The notes under the pieces: generated by a model
What the model was told of the DNA's origin: nothing
The model's database searches: none
What the model saw: the letters and a program-made list of their open reading frames with translations, nothing else
Source of the DNA: Candidatus Poribacteria bacterium
GTDB taxonomy: Bacteria > Poribacteria > WGA-4E > WGA-3G
Assembly: GCA_022821065.1 (NCBI GenBank)
Contig: JAJEEK010000007.1
Location: 4,487 to 68,486 of the forward strand
Length of the DNA stretch: 64,000 bases
Direction: 5' to 3'
In this document: positions 2,803-16,849 of the stretch, piece after piece
How positions within the stretch are numbered: the first letter of the stretch is position 1
How the letters are laid out: the number at the start of each line of letters is the position of its first letter
Position numbers and translations under genes: made by a program

Positions 2803-4185
2803 ATGAACCAGCACAATCTCAACCACACGCATAAAGAACTCCGCGCCCTGCTCGGAACACGTTTCAGCACAGATAACGCTGTCCGAGACGCGCACGCACG
2901 CGATGCCTCCTATCACCGCGACACGCTCCCAGATGCCGTCGTATTCCCGAAAACAAACGCCGAAGTCGCCGAAATCGTCAAAATCTGTACGAAACACAAA
3001 ATACCGATCATCCCCTACGGCACCGGCACCGGCGTTGAAGGTGCAGTCGTCGCAACCGAAGGCGCGCTCTGTATCGCACTCAACGAAATGAACCGCATCC
3101 TGCGCGTCAACCGAGACGACAGGGATACCACCGTCCAAGCAGGCGTGACACGCTTACAATTGAATACACACCTTGAAAAGATCGGGACACAACTCCATTT
3201 CCCTGTCGATCCGGGGGCAGACGCTTCACTCGGCGGCATGGTCGCGACCCGCGCATCCGGCACGAGTGCCGTCCGATACGGCACAATGCTCGATAACGTC
3301 CTCGGCTTGACAGTCGTCACCGCCGACGGTTCTATTATCGACACCGGTGGCAGAGCCAGAAAATCCGCCGCAGGCTACGACCTCACGCGTCTCTTTATCG
3401 GTTCGGAAGGCACACTCGGAATTATCACCGAAATCACACTGAAGCTAACACGTCTACCGGAAGCGGTTGCCGCAGCAGTCTGCGCTTTTCCGAGCATCGC
3501 CGCCGCAGTAGACACCGTTATCAAAATGATGGACACAGGTATCAGCATCGCACGCATTGAACTGTTGGACGAACTTCAGATGGATGCCGTTAATAAATAT
3601 GCTGGATTAGATTACGAAGTCGCACCGACACTTTTCCTTGAGTTTCATGGTTCCGAACACACCGTCGCAGAGAGTTCTGAGATTGCCGGTAAAATCGCAG
3701 CCCGACACGGGAGCGGCGATTTCCGATGGGCAACAGACGAAACGGAACGTAAACGCCTCTGGCAGGCGCGATACGATAGCTACTACGCAGCACTCAATCG
3801 TCGTCCGGGTTCCGTCGGGTACGTAACCGATGTCTGTGTCCCGATCTCCCGACTCGCTGAGTGTATCGAGAAAACGAAAGCACGCCTCGCGACATCAGAC
3901 CTCGAACCGTCAATCCTCGGACACGTCGGCGACGGCAACTTTCATGTCGTCTTTCCGCTTGAACCCGATAACGCCGACGAATTAACAGAGGCACAACGGC
4001 TCAGCCACGAAATTGTAGACATCGCCTTAGAAATGGACGGCACCTGCACAGGCGAACACGGGGTCGGCATCGGTAAACGCAAAGCATTGGAGAAGGAACA
4101 CGGAGAGGCAGTCAATCTGATGCGCGCCATCAAACACGCTTTGGACCCACGCAACTTAATGAACCCCGGTAAGGTTTTCTTATAG
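2803..4185 (+). CDS. FAD-linked oxidase (GlcD / D-lactate dehydrogenase family)
   Basis: 460 aa. FAD-binding PCMH-type N-terminus (VVFPKTNAEVAEIVKICTKHKIPIIPYGTGTGVEG), GYDLTRLFIGSEGTLGIITE, and C-terminal GEHGVGIGKR motif. Confidence 0.85.
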   Translation: MNQHNLNHTHKELRALLGTRFSTDNAVRDAHARDASYHRDTLPDAVVFPKTNAEVAEIVKICTKHKIPIIPYGTGTGVEGAVVATEGALCIALNEMNRILRVNRDDRDTTVQAGVTRLQLNTHLEKIGTQLHFPVDPGADASLGGMVATRASGTSAVRYGTMLDNVLGLTVVTADGSIIDTGGRARKSAAGYDLTRLFIGSEGTLGIITEITLKLTRLPEAVAAAVCAFPSIAAAVDTVIKMMDTGISIARIELLDELQMDAVNKYAGLDYEVAPTLFLEFHGSEHTVAESSEIAGKIAARHGSGDFRWATDETERKRLWQARYDSYYAALNRRPGSVGYVTDVCVPISRLAECIEKTKARLATSDLEPSILGHVGDGNFHVVFPLEPDNADELTEAQRLSHEIVDIALEMDGTCTGEHGVGIGKRKALEKEHGEAVNLMRAIKHALDPRNLMNPGKVFL

Positions 4186-6183: not shown

Positions 6184-6247
6184 TTAGCGAATAAACCACT
6201 AAAGTATTAGACACACCATATTGTGCTATAATCATTGGAGAACTCAC

Positions 6248-7441
6248 ATGCAACAATTACCTGACGCAACAGGGCATTTCGGGCAATTCGGAGGCAGATA
6301 CGTCCCCGAAACCCTAATGCCCGCACTCTTAGAGCTCGAAGACGCATACAACCAACTCAAAGATAACACGGATTTCCAAGAAGAATTCCGATATTACCTC
6401 CGAGAATACGTCGGACGACCGAATCCGCTCTATTATGCGGAACGTCTCACGGAGACACTCGGCGGCGCGAAGATATACCTCAAACGCGAAGACCTTAACC
6501 ATACAGGCGCGCATAAGATTAACAGTGCCATCGGTCAAATCCTCCTCGCACGTTGGATGGGCAAAAAACGGATTATCGCTGAAACCGGTGCCGGACAACA
6601 CGGCGTTGCAACCGCCACTGTCGCCGCAAAATTCGATATGGAGTGCGAAGTCTATATGGGTGAGGAAGACATAGAACGGCAGGCACTCAACGTCTTCCGG
6701 ATGCAGTTGATGGGAACAAAAGTCGTGCCGGTTGACTCCGGTTCCCGGACGCTCAAGGATGCAATCAACGCCTGCTTCCGGGATTGGGTCACGAACGTCC
6801 GCACGACGTATCTGCTGCTCGGTTCAGTCGTCGGCGCACACCCGTACCCGATGATCGTCAGGGATTTCCAAGCCGTCATCGGCGACGAAGCGAGAGCACA
6901 AATCTTGGAACAGGAAGGCAAGTTACCGGACTGCGTCGTCGCTTGTGTCGGCGGTGGCAGCAATTCGCTCGGTATGTTCTACCCGTTCTATGCCGATGAA
7001 GCTGTCCGAATGATCGGCGTAGAAGCCGCAGGCGAGAGCATCCGGAGCGGACGACACGCCGCACCGCTCACCGCAGGCAGCGTCGGTGTTTTCCACGGTG
7101 CCAAGTGCTACCTATTACAAGAAGACGACGGACAGATAACCCCCGCACACTCCATCTCTGCCGGATTAGACTACCCCGGCGTCGGACCGGAACACAGTTT
7201 TTACCGTGAAACGGGTCGAGCGGAATACGTCCCGATCACCGATACGGAAGCGGTGGAAGGTTTCCAATTGCTATCGGAGACAGAGGGTATCATACCGGCA
7301 TTGGAATCCGCACACGCCATCGCGTATCTGCGGGAACTCGCACCGAAACTCGGTAAAGAGCAGGTCATCGTCGTATGCCTTTCCGGTAGAGGTGATAAGG
7401 ATGTCTATACCATCGCAAAAGAATTAGGCATCAGCCTCTAA
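6248..7441 (+). CDS. trpB: Tryptophan synthase beta chain
   Basis: [30 protein letters not shown]-lysine motif [11 protein letters not shown], and [10 protein letters not shown]. ggaga RBS before ATG 6248. An extended -10 (tgctataat) lies at 6223-6231. Confidence 0.95.
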
Positions 7442-7467
7442 TTTTGAAAGGGCAGTGTAAAAACAAT

Positions 7468-7496
7468 TTGCTATCCAATCCGATATATGCTATAAT
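7468..7496 (+). promoter_or_regulatory. Sigma70-like promoter (TTGCTA-17 nt-TATAAT) facing the isrB leader
   Basis: ttgcta at 7468-7473 and tataat at 7491-7496 with exactly 17-nt spacing. Predicted TSS is near 7503. Confidence 0.5.
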
Positions 7497-7502
7497 TCTG
7501 TC

Positions 7503-7742
7503 GTTTATCGAAAAAACAGCAAGCGAGGTGGCACCGTCAGTGACCCCGTCCTAAAGGGCGAGGCGTGTCCCATACGCCAGCCAAAGCTATAGATGGGACG
7601 CGGGAAACTCATTGACTACAGTAAAATATCGCGGTATCTTGGTGTGGCAGCCAGCAGAATGTTTCGGATGCTCCCCAAGTCTGATTCATCTTAGATACTG
7701 TGATCTGGATGGGGAAATATACACTCGAAAGAGGTTTATGTC
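7503..7742 (+). ncRNA. Candidate omega RNA (HEARO-like guide RNA scaffold plus 5' guide) of the IsrB element; ends approximate
   Basis: The 301-nt non-coding gap between trpB and isrB has no ORF. It contains several strong helices: cgtcc-taaa-gggcg 7547-7560; a 10-bp stem cgtgtcccat/atgggacgcg at 7564-7573 and 7593-7602; and nested gtatcttgg...ccaag...agatac at 7634-7698. Position and orientation match the known IscB/IsrB locus architecture. Confidence 0.55.
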
Positions 7743-8790
7743 GTGTTAGTTGTCGTCGTAGATAAGAATCAACACCCCCTCATGCCTACCAAGCCTTCAC
7801 GGGCAAGGCGTTGGATAAAATCAGGCAAGGCAACACCGTTTTGGAACAACGGCATCTTCTGCGTCCGATTAAACGTTGACCCATCGGACACTGAGTTCCA
7901 AGATATTGCTGTCGGTATAGACCCCGGTAGTAAGAAAGAAGGGATTACTGTTAAGTCAGAGAAGCATACCTACTTGAATGTGCAGGCAGAGGCTCACAGC
8001 AAAGTGGGTAAGAAAGTTGAAAAACGTCGTGAGTTGCGGAGAAGCAGACGCTCTCGGAAATGCCCGAATCGCAAGAACAGAACGAATCGTAACGCAGGCA
8101 AAGCGAAGCTACCGGCAGGGACGCGTGCGAGGTGGGATTGGAAACTTCGTATCCTTGAGTGGCTTTCAAAGTTGTATCCCGTCACACACGTCTGTGTAGA
8201 GGATATTAAGGCACGCACCATAGAACGTGCCAAGAAATGGAATCAATCGTTTAGTCCACTTGAAGTCGGTAAGCAGTGGTTCTATACCGAAATCCGAAAG
8301 CAGTGGCAGTTGCGAACCCTTCAAGGGTGGCAAACCAAAGAGATACGCGATCAGTTAGGACTCAAGAAGTCGTCAGAGAAGAAGTCAGAAACCTTTGCCG
8401 CACATTGTGTAGATTCTTGGTGTCTGGCACATCACGTTGTAGGCGGTTGTGTTTTGGACAACACAGACTTATTCTGTATATCACCGATACCGATCGTCAG
8501 ACGTCAACTCCATAGGCAGAATCCCCAGAAAGGTGGCAAACGCTCCCGATACGGCGGCACTGTTCTCGGGGATGGACTTATCAAAAATACGTTGATAAAG
8601 CACGTCAAATACGGTTTGACCCGTCTTGCGGGTGTCAACGCAAAAGGTAGATATTCCATCTACACTTTAGACGGTATACGACTGACAACACATGCAAAAC
8701 GTAACACGTTTAATGTGCTAACACGCCTCAACTTCAACTATAGGAGCGGGATTTCCTCCCCGTCTTAAAAGGCGAGGTTTCCATCCCGAA
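7523..8790 (+). mobile_element. Non-autonomous IS200/IS605-like element carrying isrB (no tnpA); boundaries approximate
   Basis: Near-identical subterminal hairpin motifs ccccgtcCtaaaGggcgagg (7544-7563) and ccccgtcTtaaaAggcgagg (8758-8777) lie on the same strand. The element is inserted between trpB and a HEAT-repeat gene. No Y1 transposase is present in the window. Confidence 0.5.
7743..8768 (+). CDS. isrB: IsrB-type OMEGA RNA-guided RuvC nickase (IscB homolog lacking the HNH insert)
   Basis: 341 aa, GTG start 8 nt after aaagagg. N-terminal PLMP domain (VDKNQHPLMPTKPSRARRWIKSGKA), RuvC-I VGIDPGSKKEG (D60), Arg-rich bridge helix RRELRRSRRSRK (RRXRR), RuvC-II VCVEDIK (E153), RuvC-III AAHCVDSW (H221/D224). 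Only about 60 aa separate RuvC-II and RuvC-III, with no HNH or Cys4 motif. Confidence 0.8.
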   Translation: MLVVVVDKNQHPLMPTKPSRARRWIKSGKATPFWNNGIFCVRLNVDPSDTEFQDIAVGIDPGSKKEGITVKSEKHTYLNVQAEAHSKVGKKVEKRRELRRSRRSRKCPNRKNRTNRNAGKAKLPAGTRARWDWKLRILEWLSKLYPVTHVCVEDIKARTIERAKKWNQSFSPLEVGKQWFYTEIRKQWQLRTLQGWQTKEIRDQLGLKKSSEKKSETFAAHCVDSWCLAHHVVGGCVLDNTDLFCISPIPIVRRQLHRQNPQKGGKRSRYGGTVLGDGLIKNTLIKHVKYGLTRLAGVNAKGRYSIYTLDGIRLTTHAKRNTFNVLTRLNFNYRSGISSPS

Positions 8791-8797
8791 GAATTCG

Positions 8798-9412
8798 ATG
8801 ACCAGCGAAACCGCAGGCTCTGCCTCAAACCAGTCGCCCCAGCAAAAAGTTCGTAAGTTCATCGGTTGGATCCTACATCGAGACGGTCCCGTTCGGAACT
8901 GGCGGTACATCCCGACACACGTGTTGCTGCGAAAACTACGGTCAGAATCCGCTGAGATGCGTGCCTATGCAGCCGAAGGATTAGGAGGTATCGGCGATGG
9001 GCATGCAGTTGTCCCGCTCATCAACGCCTTAACCGATACCAACTCCACCGTCCGCCGCTTTGCCATCTCCTCGCTCGGAAAAATCCGAGACGCACGCGCC
9101 GTTGATGTCCTGATCCCGTTCCTACAAGATGAGGAAGCAGACATGCGATGCGCCGCCGCCGTCGCTCTCGGAGAATTAGGTCTCAGCGGAGACCGGTTTT
9201 CAACGCCACCGACCCAGATTATAGAAGCACTCATACACAGCATAACAGACAGTGACAGGGGTGTCTCCGCCGCCGCGATTGTCGCTTTAGGTAGAATCGG
9301 GAACCCGCAAGCCGTCTCCGCACTCAAAGCACTCGAAGATACCACCGAAAGCGAATGGATCCGCCGATACATAAGCGAAGCACTCCATCAAATCGAAGAA
9401 CAGAACGCTTAA
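8798..9412 (+). CDS. HEAT-repeat (PBS-lyase-type) protein
   Basis: Repeated units of the type RAYAAEGLGGIGDGHAVVPLINAL.D.NSTVRRFAISSLGKIRDARAV. The start is uncertain because no SD is visible. Confidence 0.7.
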   Translation: MTSETAGSASNQSPQQKVRKFIGWILHRDGPVRNWRYIPTHVLLRKLRSESAEMRAYAAEGLGGIGDGHAVVPLINALTDTNSTVRRFAISSLGKIRDARAVDVLIPFLQDEEADMRCAAAVALGELGLSGDRFSTPPTQIIEALIHSITDSDRGVSAAAIVALGRIGNPQAVSALKALEDTTESEWIRRYISEALHQIEEQNA

Positions 9413-11038: not shown

Positions 11039-14000
11039 ATGATAGAAGAGTCAATTCACGTACAAGGTGCGCGAGAACACAACCTACGCAATATTGACAT
11101 CCAACTGCCAAAAGATAAACTCATCGTCTTCACCGGCGTTAGCGGTTCAGGGAAATCTTCACTGGCTATTGATACCGTTTATGCTGAGGGGCAACGGCGA
11201 TACATCGAATCTCTATCCGCTTATGCCCGTCAATTTTTAGGGCAACTCGGAAAACCAGACGTAGACGAAATTATCGGACTCTCACCTTCTATCGCTATTA
11301 GCCAAGGGTCAACAGGACATAACCCGCGCTCCACCGTCGCTACCGTAACCGAGATTTATGACTATCTCCGTGTCCTCTATGCCCGCGTTGGGCAATTCCA
11401 TTGTGTTGAATGCGGAAGTGAAATCGGTTCACAAACCGAAGCGGATATAATTAAGGCACTCCTCGACTATCCTGACCGTACAAGGCTCATCGTCTTAGCA
11501 CCCATCGCCAGAGGCACCCGCGGCGCACACCAAAAAGAATTTGAGGACCTCCGAAAAGCCGGGTTCGCAAGATTAAGAGTGGATGGCGAGATACACGAAC
11601 TGCGCCCCGGTTTCGCTCTCAGCCCAAATCAACGCCACGATATTGATCTCGTCATTGACCGGATCGTCATTAAAGAGGGAATTGAGGCGCGGGTCACCCA
11701 AGCCGTAGACACAGCACTTTCGCGTGGGGACGGTATCATGCTCGTTCAAACGGTTTCGGATGCAAGCGAAGCATCGCCATTCCTGCCAGAGGAAGATGAC
11801 CGCATCTTTAGTAAAAACTATACCTGTTTAGAATGCGGGATTAGTTTCGTAAAACCGGAACCACGTCATTTTTCTTTCAACAACCCTGATGGGATGTGTG
11901 AAAAATGCAGGGGTTTAGGCGTACAGATGGGTATCTCACCGCAGCGAATCGTCTCTGATGGAACGCTCTCTATCATGAAGGGAGCAATCACCCTCTGGGG
12001 ACCCCTCAACAAACAGAAGCGCACCACAGAAAAAGCCATCGCTGAAGCCGTCGGAAAACACCTCGGATTTGACATCAAGACACCTTGGAACGAACTCACA
12101 CAGGAACAGCAAGACGCTATCCTTTACGGCACCGGTGACGCTGTCCTCACAATTACGGTCCCAAGCACAAGTGGACACAAAAGACGAAAACAGCGACGAC
12201 GACATCGTGTCCATTTTCACGGTATCATTCCAGCCGAAGAACAGAAATACTATTTTGAAGATAGTGCTGAGGTTTCCGACGAAGACAACTTTCCTGACCA
12301 TTTCGTCAAAATGCAGTGTAGGGAATGCGACGGCACCCGGCTAAACTCGTGGATAAAGTCCGTAACGGTAGCGGATACACCGATAACCGACATCCTCGAA
12401 ATGTCTATTCAGGACGCAACCGAATTCTTTAATAAAGTAACACTCCCAGAACGTGAAGCATTCATCGCCAAGGAACTCCTGAAGGAGATTCGAGGCAGAC
12501 TCGGTTTCCTTATGGGAGTAGGATTGGGGTACTTGACGCTTGCGCGTCCGGCACCGACACTCTCCGGCGGCGAAGCACAGCGCATCCGTCTCGCCAGCCA
12601 AGTCGGCGCAGGGTTACGTGATGTCACTTATGTCCTCGATGAACCAAGCATCGGATTACACCCGCGCGACCACGCCGGACTCCTCACAACGCTCCTAAAT
12701 CTAAGGAACCAAGGCAACACCGTTATTGTTGTTGAACACGATGAAGCAACGATGTTAGTCGCCGATTGGATCGTCGATTTCGGGCCCGGCGCAGGGATTA
12801 AAGGCGGGAAGATAACTGACATCGGAACACCCGCACAGTTCATCAAGGAGAGCAACTCACTTACGGCACAATATCTCCGCGGCGATAAAGTGATCGTCCA
12901 ACCCGAATCGCGGCGTCCCGCAGGAGATAGATGGATACAGATCTGCAACGCACGGCAAAACAACCTTAAAGAGATTAGTCCGAAAATACCGATCGGGACC
13001 CTCTGCTGTGTAACAGGGGTCAGCGGTTCCGGAAAGAGTTCCTTAATCCACGATATTCTCTACAACGCACTCGCTCGCGACCTCATGAAGGCGAAGACTG
13101 TACCCGGAGACTATGACGAAATCCGAGGGGTCATTGAAGACAAAAACGTTCCTATTTCTGATGTCATTGACAAAATTATCAATATCAACATGGCACCCAT
13201 CGGACGAACACCACGTTCTAACGCCGCAACCTACACAAAGGTGTTCGATGCGATTCGGGCACTCTATGCTGGCTTGCCTGACGCGAAACTACGCGGCTAT
13301 AAACCCGGACGCTTCAGCTTCAATGTTAGCGGCGGTAGATGTGAAGCCTGCAACGGCAACGGCGCGAAAAAGGTCGATATGGGACTGCTCTCCGATGTCT
13401 GGGTAGAATGCGAAGTCTGCGAAGGGAAACGCTTCAACAGCGAAACGCTCAGCATAAAATATAAAGACAAAAGCATCTCTGAAGTCCTCGAAATGGATAT
13501 TGATGCCGCACTCGAACATTTCGCCGATATCCCGAGAGTCGCAAGAGGGTTACAACTCCTCCACGATGTCGGTCTCGATTACATTAAACTCGGACAACCC
13601 GCACCGACACTCTCCGGCGGTGAGGCACAACGCATTAAACTTTCAAAAGAACTCTCCAAACGCGGAACCGGTAAAACACTCTATATCCTTGATGAACCGA
13701 CAACAGGGCTACATTTCGACGACGTAAATAAACTGTTGACGATCCTTCACAGACTCGTTGACGATGGTAATACCGTTGTCGTCGTTGAGCATAACCTTGA
13801 GGTTATCAATTCCGCAGACTATCTGATCGACTTGGGACCAGAAGGCGGTGTCGGCGGCGGAACAATCGTCGCTACAGGCACACCAGAGCAGATCGCTGAA
13901 ACCCCAGAATCTTACACCGGACAAGCACTCCGCGGCGATTTCGATATCTGGAGAGACGCGAAGCGACGACTCATGAAACCCGAACTCGCAGACATCTTCG

Positions 14001-16849
14001 GACAGGAACAAGACAGACGGACAGCAATCGCTGTGCAAGGGGCAACAGAAAATAATCTCAAGAATGTCGATATCGACATCCCGCATCGTAAAATGACAGC
14101 GTTGACGGGCGTCAGCGGCTCCGGAAAAACATCACTTGCACTCGACACCATCTACGCCGAAGGGCAGCGCCGTTACATTGAGACCCTTAGCACTTACGCA
14201 CGCCAGTTTATAGGGCAGATGGAGAAACCGAAGGTCTCGAAAATTGAGGGACTTTCACCCGCAATCGCTATTTCGCATGCAAACGCAGGGCAAAACCCGC
14301 GCTCAACAGTCGCAACGATCACCGAAATTCACGACGGACTCCGAACGCTTTATGCCAGATGGGGCAAACCCTACTGTCCAGATTGCCGCGAAGAGGTCCG
14401 ACCACAGAGCGCAGAGGAAATTGCAGAGAAGGCTTTTGAACTATTCCGCGATAAGCGAGTGGATGTTCTCGCGCCGCTCACAAACTTTATGCTACTTCCA
14501 GATGCTCAGGAAGGGGCAGTCCGCGGTAAAATGATTGACATCAACGCCAGCGAATCCGCATACGGGTTGAAAGGCAATGAAGATTACGCCGATCTCTTCA
14601 GCCGGTTGCAGAGAGCAGGCTTCGCACGCATCCAAATTGATAACGAAATTCATCGACTTGACGAAGCACCCAGACTGAGTAAAATCATCCGACATGAAAT
14701 CTTCATCGTCATTGATCGCGTTGAACTTGTTGACGAGGAAAAGAGCCGGTTTACTGAGGCAGTCGAGTTGGCACTCGTCCAAAGTGGCGGGTTCGTACTT
14801 CTCCAAGAGACCAGAGAAGCCATCGGCAAAGAGGTTTCCGAAAGCCGAAAGCCGAAAGCCGAAAGCCGAAAGCCGAAAGCCGAAATTAAAAAGTTCTTCA
14901 GCGAACACGCCATGTGCGCTTCTTGTGGTAACAATTTCGGACAACTCACACCACGCCACTTCTCCTTTAACAACAAAATCGGCGCATGTGATGTTTGTGA
15001 CGGACGTGGGATGAATATACACCCGCCTTATGATCGATGTCGCCATTGTCACGGCACACGCTTGAAATCGTTCCCAAGTTGCGTCATGTTTGAGGACACA
15101 ACTATCTCCGAATTGATGGAGATGTCTATTACCGAAACCATCGAATTCTTTAACACACGGCTGGCACAGATTGAAACGTCAGTCTCATCTCCTGTGGGTG
15201 CTGACGGTTCCCGAAGCGGTGAAGACGATCTCGCTGCGGCGAAAGGTGTGGCTACCTCCAGGGCAACGCATCCTGCACTCCATATTCATACCTCGCCTGA
15301 GTTTGAAGCCGAAGTCCTTCACCAAATTCGGATACGCCTGCAGTTCTTAGAAGACATTGGTCTCGGCTATCTCGCATTGGATCGCGGGGCACCGACACTC
15401 TCCGGCGGTGAAATGCGTAGGATTCAACTCGCAAGCCAACTCGGGAGCGGTCTTACTGGCGTAACCTACATCCTTGACGAACCGAGTATCGGATTGCACC
15501 CACGCGACCAAGAACGCCTCATTTCCGCACTTAAGGAACTTCGGGACATCGGCAATAGTGTCCTCGTTGTCGAACACGATCGAGACACAATATTAGCCGC
15601 CGATCACGTCATCGACTTCGGCCCTAACGCAGGCAAAGGCGGCGGTGAGGTCATCGCGACCGGCGCACCGGAAATCTTCACGCACAAACCGCCTGATACA
15701 GAGGAATCGTCCGTCAAATCATTGACGCAGGCATACCTCTCTAATGAAGTAGATATACCGGTTCCCAAGACTCGACGCGAAGGCACAGGTAAACAACTCG
15801 CGTTATACGGAGCAAAAACGAACAACCTCAAGGATATCGATGTTAAGATCCCACTCGGAACACTTACCTGTGTAACCGGTGTTTCAGGGTGCGGAAAGAG
15901 CTCGCTTGTTGAAGGCACCCTAAAACCAGCACTCGAAAGCAGTAACGCTATCAAAGCCGACGGTGCCAGAGACCGCCTCCATACTCACTATATCAGAGAT
16001 AGCAGGCCTGAACCCGTGCCTAACGATTATGGGACACCGGAGTATCGGAGCATCCGTGGCGTCAGTCATATTAAACGTCTCATCAATGTTGACCAGAAAG
16101 CGATCGGCGAAACACCGCGCTCCAATCCGGCAACCTACACCGACCTCTTCACGAAAATTCGGGAACTCTTCGCTGAGCAAAACGACGCAAAGATGCGAGG
16201 TTTCGGTATCGGGATGTTCAGTTTCAACCTCGCTTCGGGACAGTGCCATGTCTGTGAAGGACACCGTTTCAACCGCGTCGAAATGCATTTCCTACCCGAT
16301 GTATGGATGCCGTGTGAAGCATGTAATAGCACCGGTTATAGTCAGGATACCCTCGAAATCCGATATAACGATAAGAATATCGCTGAAGTTTTGGATATGA
16401 CGGTAGATGAGGCACTCGAATTTTTCAGCGATGACTCGCGTATCTGTCGGACGCTCCAGATGTTAGCAGATGTCGGACTCGGCTATATCCAACTCGGACA
16501 ATCCGCACCGACGCTCTCCGGTGGCGAAGCGCAGCGCGTCAAACTCGCGAAAGAGTTGGCACGGCGTACAACCGGTTCAACGCTCTATATCATGGACGAA
16601 CCGACGACCGGACTCCATTTTGACGACATCCAAAAACTCCTCAAAGTCCTCAACCGTCTCGTCGATGCAGGCAACACAATCATCGCCGTGGAACACAACA
16701 TTGATGTCATCAAGTCTGCCGATTGGGTCATCGACCTGGGACCGGAGGGCAGCAAGAACGGCGGAGAAGTCGTCGCTATGGGCACGCCAGAAGATGTCGC
16801 AAAAGTCCAAGAATCCCATACCGCTCGTTTCCTACGCGAGGTATTATAG
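11039..16849 (+). CDS. uvrA: Tandem-fused double UvrA (two complete excinuclease ABC subunit A units in one 1936-aa polypeptide)
   Basis: Four Walker A sites (GVSGSGKSS x2, GVSGSGKTS, GVSGCGKSS). Two copies of the N-terminal signature NL(R/K)N(I/V)DI..P......TGVSGSGK.SLA.DT.YAEGQRRY, at residue 1 and at about residue 990. Four LSGGE signatures and duplicated zinc modules. The frame is uninterrupted. Confidence 0.9.
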   Translation: MIEESIHVQGAREHNLRNIDIQLPKDKLIVFTGVSGSGKSSLAIDTVYAEGQRRYIESLSAYARQFLGQLGKPDVDEIIGLSPSIAISQGSTGHNPRSTVATVTEIYDYLRVLYARVGQFHCVECGSEIGSQTEADIIKALLDYPDRTRLIVLAPIARGTRGAHQKEFEDLRKAGFARLRVDGEIHELRPGFALSPNQRHDIDLVIDRIVIKEGIEARVTQAVDTALSRGDGIMLVQTVSDASEASPFLPEEDDRIFSKNYTCLECGISFVKPEPRHFSFNNPDGMCEKCRGLGVQMGISPQRIVSDGTLSIMKGAITLWGPLNKQKRTTEKAIAEAVGKHLGFDIKTPWNELTQEQQDAILYGTGDAVLTITVPSTSGHKRRKQRRRHRVHFHGIIPAEEQKYYFEDSAEVSDEDNFPDHFVKMQCRECDGTRLNSWIKSVTVADTPITDILEMSIQDATEFFNKVTLPEREAFIAKELLKEIRGRLGFLMGVGLGYLTLARPAPTLSGGEAQRIRLASQVGAGLRDVTYVLDEPSIGLHPRDHAGLLTTLLNLRNQGNTVIVVEHDEATMLVADWIVDFGPGAGIKGGKITDIGTPAQFIKESNSLTAQYLRGDKVIVQPESRRPAGDRWIQICNARQNNLKEISPKIPIGTLCCVTGVSGSGKSSLIHDILYNALARDLMKAKTVPGDYDEIRGVIEDKNVPISDVIDKIININMAPIGRTPRSNAATYTKVFDAIRALYAGLPDAKLRGYKPGRFSFNVSGGRCEACNGNGAKKVDMGLLSDVWVECEVCEGKRFNSETLSIKYKDKSISEVLEMDIDAALEHFADIPRVARGLQLLHDVGLDYIKLGQPAPTLSGGEAQRIKLSKELSKRGTGKTLYILDEPTTGLHFDDVNKLLTILHRLVDDGNTVVVVEHNLEVINSADYLIDLGPEGGVGGGTIVATGTPEQIAETPESYTGQALRGDFDIWRDAKRRLMKPELADIFGQEQDRRTAIAVQGATENNLKNVDIDIPHRKMTALTGVSGSGKTSLALDTIYAEGQRRYIETLSTYARQFIGQMEKPKVSKIEGLSPAIAISHANAGQNPRSTVATITEIHDGLRTLYARWGKPYCPDCREEVRPQSAEEIAEKAFELFRDKRVDVLAPLTNFMLLPDAQEGAVRGKMIDINASESAYGLKGNEDYADLFSRLQRAGFARIQIDNEIHRLDEAPRLSKIIRHEIFIVIDRVELVDEEKSRFTEAVELALVQSGGFVLLQETREAIGKEVSESRKPKAESRKPKAEIKKFFSEHAMCASCGNNFGQLTPRHFSFNNKIGACDVCDGRGMNIHPPYDRCRHCHGTRLKSFPSCVMFEDTTISELMEMSITETIEFFNTRLAQIETSVSSPVGADGSRSGEDDLAAAKGVATSRATHPALHIHTSPEFEAEVLHQIRIRLQFLEDIGLGYLALDRGAPTLSGGEMRRIQLASQLGSGLTGVTYILDEPSIGLHPRDQERLISALKELRDIGNSVLVVEHDRDTILAADHVIDFGPNAGKGGGEVIATGAPEIFTHKPPDTEESSVKSLTQAYLSNEVDIPVPKTRREGTGKQLALYGAKTNNLKDIDVKIPLGTLTCVTGVSGCGKSSLVEGTLKPALESSNAIKADGARDRLHTHYIRDSRPEPVPNDYGTPEYRSIRGVSHIKRLINVDQKAIGETPRSNPATYTDLFTKIRELFAEQNDAKMRGFGIGMFSFNLASGQCHVCEGHRFNRVEMHFLPDVWMPCEACNSTGYSQDTLEIRYNDKNIAEVLDMTVDEALEFFSDDSRICRTLQMLADVGLGYIQLGQSAPTLSGGEAQRVKLAKELARRTTGSTLYIMDEPTTGLHFDDIQKLLKVLNRLVDAGNTIIAVEHNIDVIKSADWVIDLGPEGSKNGGEVVAMGTPEDVAKVQESHTARFLREVL
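14838..14886 (+). repeat. Heptanucleotide microsatellite (CCGAAAG x6 plus CCGAAAT) inside the second UvrA unit
   Basis: Six perfect 7-nt units at 14838-14879, then one imperfect unit. They are translated as SRKPKAE SRKPKAE. Confidence 0.95.

Follow-up and report, generated by a model that had tools for sequence, protein, structure and literature searches.

A probably intact, non-autonomous IsrB element of the ISC1 type inserted at a host start codon in Candidatus Poribacteria

In a stretch of 64,000 nucleotides from a Candidatus Poribacteria bacterium (contig JAJEEK010000007.1; the whole 64-kb stretch is referred to here as the window), a first-pass annotation had pointed to an IsrB gene preceded by a structured RNA. 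Our analysis indicates that the segment at 7536-8797 is very probably an intact, non-autonomous element of the ISC1 type within the IS200/IS605 superfamily, which contains only an omega-RNA scaffold and isrB and operates by the mechanism proposed below. The complete ISC1/IsrB element spans 1,262 bp on the + strand, has the termini 5'-GTCA...TTCG-3' and lacks a target-site duplication. This reading is carried by the family of the encoded protein, a covarying RNA, ends defined exactly with the help of an empty site, a motif that flanks the insertions and the recent mobility of related copies. For the comparisons, we used the best 80 of 221 matching loci in species-representative genomes; all 80 belong to Candidatus Poribacteria, and the chromosome with the most copies holds up to eight among these 80.

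The isrB gene (7743-8768, +) is an open reading frame (ORF) of 341 aa that begins with GTG and encodes a PLMP domain, a split RuvC domain, an Arg-rich bridge helix, no HNH domain and a putative C-terminal domain for interaction with the target-adjacent motif (TAM). The ORF and all motifs named in the first-pass annotation are found where it placed them: HPLMP at residues 11-15, GIDPGS at 58-63 (containing D60), the bridge helix RRELRRSRRSRK at 95-106, CVEDIK at 151-156 (containing E153) and HCVD at 221-224. Pfam matches the ORF to RRXRR (PF14239, E=4e-36), as expected for IsrB, and returns no match for an HNH domain, the detection of which would reclassify the protein as IscB. The gap between RuvC-II and RuvC-III is indeed short, with a distance of 68 residues from E153 to H221. 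By sequence, the closest solved structure is the IsrB chain of 8DMB from Desulfovirgula thermocuniculi (DtIsrB; phmmer E=2.9e-40, residues 4-289). When the C-terminal domain is aligned to 8DMB on its own by plain sequence, nothing is obtained beyond residue ~290, whereas the profile of our 38-member protein family extends through residue 331 (E=9e-86 against DtIsrB, residues 2-331 covered), with the RRXRR/PLMP region aligned to DtIsrB from residue 2 onward.

The predicted fold leads to the same relative. An AlphaFold2 model of the protein has a mean predicted local distance difference test score (pLDDT) of 85.7 and a predicted template-modelling score of 0.83; its PLMP domain forms a beta-sheet and a helix with pLDDT >90. 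Comparison with the IsrB-omegaRNA-DNA complex, one of the checks put forward at the outset, gave a clear result: 8DMB is the top Foldseek match of the model (E=5e-28, TM-scores of 0.79/0.82), followed by IscBs and then by RuvC resolvases; as with the profile, the alignment of the folds reaches residue 331. The four proposed catalytic residues fall on conserved columns of the family alignment, in which E153 is invariant (38/38) and D60, H221 and D224 are each present in 36-37 of 38 members; all four are retained in 121 of 121 close homologues. R313 is the counterpart of R323, with which DtIsrB reads the TAM. The ratio of nonsynonymous to synonymous substitution rates (dN/dS) of isrB is 0.06-0.24 against relatives and 0.12 against the copy at the same locus of a near-identical contig (L081). 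Judged by its sequence, the ORF is an HNH-less relative of IscB, that is, IsrB, and nicking activity is predicted from its membership in this family. The family is extensive: a word-indexed search returned >3,500 homologues of the protein, and an exhaustive search of 50%-identity representatives gave 1,620 clusters at E<=1e-3 and 184 at E<=1e-30.

The 301-nt gap upstream of isrB (7442-7742) had been taken in its entirety as the likely omega-RNA region. It does lack a substantial ORF. However, the conservation among related loci starts at 7536, which defines the scaffold as 7536-7742; the gap is thus made up of 94 nt of host DNA (7442-7535) and 207 nt of structured RNA. The expectation that homologous loci share a conserved structure is borne out by an alignment of 70 distinct scaffold sequences, all well aligned. 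Their RNAalifold consensus has 29 pairs, 19 of them with compensatory changes. A hand-curated structure, comprising 59 pairs in 10 helices including a pseudoknot, has 89.3% of its cells paired and shows two-sided changes in 36 of the 59 pairs. The covariation score of 0.297 compares with 0.126 for shuffled alignments (0 of 500 as high) and with 0.03-0.07 for controls in which the pairing partners were slid by 1-3 columns. The window sequence on its own forms the same helices in its centroid structure, with a fold z-score of -2.5.

On the + strand of the window, the P1 helix is formed by 7536-7543 and 7609-7616 and is accompanied by a hairpin at 7564-7602. A long-range stem joins 7619-7621 to 7705-7707 and 7628-7636 to 7696-7704, and two further hairpins occupy 7640-7653 and 7661-7687. 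The loop CCCCA (7673-7677) pairs with UGGGG (7710-7714) to give the pseudoknot (helix 9, 7673-7714), in which 97% of cells are paired and one pair, between alignment positions 150 and 184, is A-U in 43 sequences and U-A in 19. The terminal hairpin CTC-GAAA-GAG (helix 10, 7724-7733) holds the Shine-Dalgarno (SD) motif of isrB, GAGG (7731-7734), 8 nt ahead of the GTG start.

To locate the element boundaries, stretches of 420 nt before and 200 nt after the isrB ORF were aligned across the related loci. In the 80 Poribacteria loci, conservation sets in sharply at 7536 (GTCAGTGACC...) and stops just before the ATGA at 8798. In the window, the gap upstream of isrB follows trpB (6221-7441), and the element is directly followed by a HEAT-repeat gene (8798-9412). 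When metagenomes were scanned at the protein level with the HEAT protein as query, element-free orthologous trpB-HEAT loci came to light; an exact-pattern metagenome scan for the reconstructed empty site gave 0 matches, and a look-up of the exact HEAT protein led to the same occupied locus only. The junction reads ...GCGAGGTGGCAC-G-ATGACCCGCGAAAC at the empty locus L082 and ...GCGAGGTGGCAC-T-ATGACGCGCGAAAC at the empty loci L083 and L084, as compared with ...GCGAGGTGGCAC-C-[7536 GTCAG ... TTCG 8797]-ATGACCAGCGAAAC at the occupied locus of the window. At two further loci (L085 and L086), trpB and the HEAT gene are adjacent, 72-98 nt apart, without IsrB. Because the empty sites are contiguous across the junction and the conservation edges are sharp, the element comprises exactly 7536-8797. 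The insertion point lies between the host SD motif GAGGTG and the ATG of the HEAT gene, so that the ATGA at 8798-8801 (+), which is contiguous with the SD motif at empty sites, is at once the target site, a TAM-like motif and the start codon (plus A) of that gene. Across 75 unique insertions, the 3' flank is ATGA in 62 and GTGA in 7, which brings the NTGA total to 69 of 75. Given its precise ends and its N|ATGA target, the element belongs to the described ISC1 group.

At each end of the element, a C-rich hairpin is capped by a CTAAAG-type loop, and the two hairpins are in direct orientation (7544-7563 and 8755-8777). The sub-terminal hairpin CCCCGTCC-TAAA-GGGCGAGG (7544-7563, +), backed by covariation, marks the end next to the omega RNA ('RE', the right end, in TnpA terms) and matches 8758-8777 at 90% in the same orientation. 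The ORF-distal end ('LE', the left end, in TnpA terms) is a nested hairpin (8747-8788, +) with an outer stem CGGGAT/ATCCCG and an inner stem CCCCGTC/GGCGAGG; the stop codon of isrB lies within its loop, and the conserved tail AAGAATTCG (8789-8797) follows directly 3' of it. The outer stem covaries across copies, appearing as CGGGAT/ATCCCG, CGGGCA/TGCCCG, CGGTGT/ACACCG and CGGGCT/AGCCCG. An Rfam match to the HgcC RNA at 8734-8879 (-) overlaps this hairpin; at 17 bits and E=0.35, we dismiss it as a weak chance match explained by the end hairpin. A search for protein and RNA found one copy of the element in the 64-kb window and no further copy of either component, the only repeat being the 20-nt hairpin near-repeat at the element's other end. 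A scan for the hairpin motif elsewhere in the window gave matches at chance level.

Pairs of copies within one genome are 99.0-99.7% identical over ~1,260 bp and have unrelated flanks. Such near-identical copies at different sites of one genome show that relatives of the element moved recently. Near-identical copies occur, for example, on the chromosomes OZ243938.1 and OZ253447.1. The window copy shares 88% nucleotide identity with its nearest relative at another locus (L030) and is, on this sequence evidence, older than the recently moved copies. Among the latter, L004, L006 and L009 (chromosome OZ243938.1) together with L014 form a recently amplified subfamily whose members are mutually 99% identical. 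In L004, L006 and L009, locus position 3001 reads ATC in place of the ATG start, and the ORFs have 335 codons; IsrB may be poorly translated in these copies. As a separate observation, the window and L081 differ at 39 of 1,862 positions, 33 of which fall within the first 477 nt of isrB (window 7743-8219, L081 1446-1922). The L081 segment is 100% identical to L030, which comes from another genome as well as another locus, whereas the 3' half of the window isrB shares no more than 80% identity with L030. Such a mosaic is suggestive of gene conversion among copies of the element.

The element closely resembles systems that have already been described. ISC1-1_MA of Microcystis aeruginosa has GTCA...CG termini and an N|ATGA target, both established from empty sites (Kapitonov et al. 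2016, PMC4810608). The ISC1 group and the window element have in common an HNH-less IscB1 (equivalent to IsrB), a size of ~1.3 kb with a single protein, 5'-GTCA...CG-3' termini, sub-terminal hairpins and insertion at N|ATGA without target duplication, and both are non-autonomous and multi-copy; they differ in phylum, the window element being from Poribacteria. DtIsrB, a protein of 351 aa, works with a 284-nt omega RNA (20-nt guide plus 262-nt scaffold), recognizes an NTGA TAM, with both TTGA and ATGA cleaved, and nicks the non-target strand (Hirano et al. 2022, PMC9581776). In its omega RNA, the pseudoknots are essential, the SD motif of isrB is within hairpin SL7, and SL1 is dispensable for nicking and linked to transposition (PMC9581776).

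The window protein has the same order of parts as DtIsrB (PLMP, RuvC-I, bridge helix, RuvC-II, a short linker that replaces HNH, RuvC-III and, putatively, the TAM-interacting domain), a similar size (341 versus 351 aa), a shared fold (TM-score ~0.8) and the TAM-reading Arg (R313/R323), and its ATGA flank fits the NTGA TAM. The RNAs likewise agree in having the guide 5' of the scaffold, the SD motif in the terminal hairpin, pseudoknots and a transposon-end hairpin within the 5' 'guide adaptor' region. The differences lie in a structure-based sequence identity of ~29%, a Thr in place of Q326, a scaffold of 207 nt and ~10 helices compared with 262 nt and 12 helices, and the host, which is a mesophilic sponge symbiont for the window copy and a thermophile for DtIsrB. 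A third comparison concerns the IS605 elements that encode GstIscB or TnpB, together with the model in which their guide RNA biases the inheritance of the transposon; there, the TnpA-defined right end delimits the RNA that precedes iscB, and the left end has the TAM next to it (Meers et al. 2023, bioRxiv 10.1101/2023.03.14.532601). These elements also have the RNA at one end and the TAM at the other, tnpA rarely adjacent and a bias in gene orientation; however, their IscBs cut both strands and their retention was shown experimentally, whereas the window IsrB is a predicted nickase.

Taken together with the surrounding host DNA, the layout suggests how such an element may operate. Upstream of the element lies a predicted strong host promoter of the sigma-70 type, TTGCTA-17-TGcTATAAT (7468-7496, +), with an extended -10 region; it matches 10 of 12 consensus positions and is also conserved at the empty orthologous site L082. 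No terminator is predicted over 7300-9000, and the promoter presumably drives guide, omega RNA, isrB and host gene. The presumed guide, ACAGCAAGCGAGGTGGCACC (7516-7535, +), belongs to the host DNA that abuts the element on its 5' side and contains the host SD motif GAGGTG. This region varies in sequence among copies and occurs once in the window; we infer its length of 20 nt by analogy with DtIsrB, the guide of which occupies a matching position relative to the scaffold. In the mechanism that we propose, transcription would start from the host promoter and pass through the host 5' untranslated region (5'-UTR), with the last ~20 nt serving as guide, and would continue over the 207-nt scaffold, isrB and probably the HEAT gene. 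IsrB would bind the folded scaffold, and the complex would recognize the guide sequence followed by NTGA, as found in the element-free allele ...GGTGGCACC|ATGA. The occupied locus would be spared because the guide sequence there precedes GTCA and not NTGA. A RuvC nick on the non-target strand would make it more likely that an excised element is copied back from a sister or homologous copy, resulting in retention or homing; for moves to further N|ATGA sites, a Y1 TnpA would have to act in trans.

Several findings weigh against an intact element that works in this way. The Rfam HEARO covariance model (RF02033), which the first-pass annotation had proposed as a check on the RNA, scores 23.5 bits at 7536-7722, below its gathering score of 83, and its matches in five of nine relatives (24-41 bits) all remain below that score as well. 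By this comparison, the window RNA is a distant relative of HEARO and not a member by the Rfam rule. It shares its orientation, and its location upstream of the nuclease gene, with HEARO and IscB omega RNAs; the outer stem aligns, as does the first of the C-rich hairpins with its CUAAAG-type loop, and every sub-threshold match begins at the element boundary (7536 in the window), whereas the middle of the model finds no alignment (23-41 bits in all, versus 83). The scaffold is also 55 nt shorter than that of DtIsrB, to whose RNA an alignment was not achieved. In the protein, T316 (~8688-8690) is the counterpart of DtIsrB Q326, the reader of the fourth TAM base. Among the 121 close homologues, this residue is T in 77 and Q in 39, with no correlation with the flank motif and the ATGA flank visibly unchanged; with Q326 replaced by T316, TAM specificity rests on the flanking motif and not on residue identity. 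Furthermore, the window isrB starts with GTG, most relatives with ATG, and the homing step presupposes that a nick, rather than a double-strand break, suffices. Finally, a tblastn search with an IS200 probe, validated against Pfam Y1_Tnp, found no Y1 transposase (TnpA) in the 64-kb window or within 3 kb of 81 loci (619 kb). This agrees with the earlier impression that the element lacks tnpA and is non-autonomous: with no Y1 TnpA nearby, and with copies that span 1,253-1,298 bp and leave room only for RNA and isrB, the whole family is non-autonomous. For comparison, tnpA is near only ~1.5% of iscB genes (Meers et al. 2023, bioRxiv 10.1101/2023.03.14.532601).

Some of these observations would also fit a window copy that is a decaying or silent relic, still recognizable as IsrB and without an active ribonucleoprotein, which we consider improbable. 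The GTG start in place of ATG, the age of the copy as judged by its 88% identity to the nearest relative elsewhere and the missing TnpA point in that direction, but the ORF is full-length with its catalytic and bridge-helix residues intact, dN/dS against L081 is 0.12, all scaffold helices are paired in the window sequence, and GTG is a normal bacterial start, here with an SD motif 8 nt upstream. Much less probable again is domestication, in which IsrB would serve as an RNA-guided regulator of the adjacent gene, like the nuclease-dead, TnpB-like TldR repressors, and not as a maintenance nuclease. Consistent with such a role, the element resides co-oriented in the 5'-UTR of the host gene, and the guide region covers the host ribosome-binding site. 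Nevertheless, the nuclease residues persist in 121/121 close homologues, the family is multi-copy and mobile, with 99% identical copies at unrelated loci, orthologous loci occur without the element, and binding to its own locus is not expected because GTCA, not NTGA, follows the guide match there. An IscB with HNH, or an unrelated RuvC-fold protein next to a chance RNA structure, is refuted. In its favour, the NCBIfam guided_IscB model and PDB IscB chains match the first 120-160 residues, but the chains align no further, the model (102 bits versus a cutoff of 175) covers the N-terminal half only, no HNH matches, 68 residues separate E153 from H221, the best match over the whole length, by fold and by profile, is IsrB, and the RNA covaries.

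For an intact ISC1-type element that would take its guide from host DNA, the position relative to host genes is of particular interest. In 68 of 73 insertions (93%), isrB and the downstream gene point in the same direction, as do isrB and the upstream gene in 53 of 74. Among the 75 unique insertions, the flanking ATG or GTG begins an ORF that is 60 codons or longer in 46 cases, compared with 24% of control [AG]TGA sites. When an SD-like motif within the final 18 nt of the flank on the other side is considered in addition to the ORF, 33 of 75 insertions qualify versus 4% of controls (p=2e-25). Under a stricter null, for which the empty loci were reconstructed and only non-coding or start-zone sites were counted, start-zone insertions make up 37 of 63 non-coding insertions as opposed to 15.6% expected (p=7.5e-15). 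Ten downstream ORFs were tested and all are genuine genes, with Pfam domains or signal peptides that begin at the N-terminus defined by the ATG; examples include TonB-dependent receptors, glycogen phosphorylase and LarA. The window itself is a proven case, as its empty sites identify the flanking ATG as the start codon of the HEAT gene. Such residency at start codons goes unmentioned in the ISC paper (PMC4810608), in which neither 'start codon' nor 'initiation codon' occurs, and in a 2026 review of OMEGA systems and the HEARO-nuclease paper. Meers et al. 2023 (bioRxiv 10.1101/2023.03.14.532601) describe an orientation bias relative to the upstream gene only, whereas the bias of the window family is strongest toward the downstream gene (93%) and reaches its start codon.

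This residency may reflect selection after insertion or an adaptive placing of an externally encoded guide behind a host promoter. With the guide outside the element and no promoter of its own for it, the element needs a place downstream of a host promoter. We offer tentatively, as a possibility that we hold to be somewhat more doubtful than not, that the N|ATGA or N|GTGA target/TAM acts as a start-codon address in this Poribacteria lineage and that residency there is an adaptive lifestyle of IsrB. If this is true, translation of the host gene would still be possible, either starting from signals in the 3' tail of the element or coupled to that of isrB. The element would be a 5'-UTR 'passenger', expressed with the host gene and possibly modulating it, and its residency would be more than a by-product of purifying selection.

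Other features of the region are noted in passing. In several related genomes, trpB and the HEAT-gene promoter are separated by a different insert, 0.6-1.1 kb long and containing small ORFs (L082 520-1140, L083/L084 1725-2420 and L087 300-1390). One of these ORFs begins MTNIAKIQEEVLALSE... and may belong to an antitoxin-like pair; the region between trpB and the HEAT gene looks like a hotspot for small cassettes. Further downstream in the window, an ORF of 1,936 aa (11039-16849, +) looks like a tandem fusion of two UvrA-like ABC ATPases, and the identical protein in L081 carries annotated Pfam matches to UvrA_inter and UvrA_DNA-bind.

These results leave the understanding of OMEGA systems as it stands. 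An IsrB/ISC1 element with an N|ATGA target is of an already known kind; Poribacteria are unmentioned in the top-ranked literature on IscB, IsrB, TnpB and RRXRR. The findings describe a clearly bounded IsrB system that appears functional, with a scaffold shorter than that of the sole structurally characterized IsrB, in a family that is large, diverse and recently mobile, and the alignment assembled here may be of use in engineering compact nickases. With exact ends, the position of the guide and a predicted ATGA/GTGA TAM at hand, a nicking assay is directly designable. Only the start-codon residency might represent new biology. Combined with the co-orientation of element and host gene, it suggests how guide RNAs that start outside the element get transcribed and how the insertions are tolerated.

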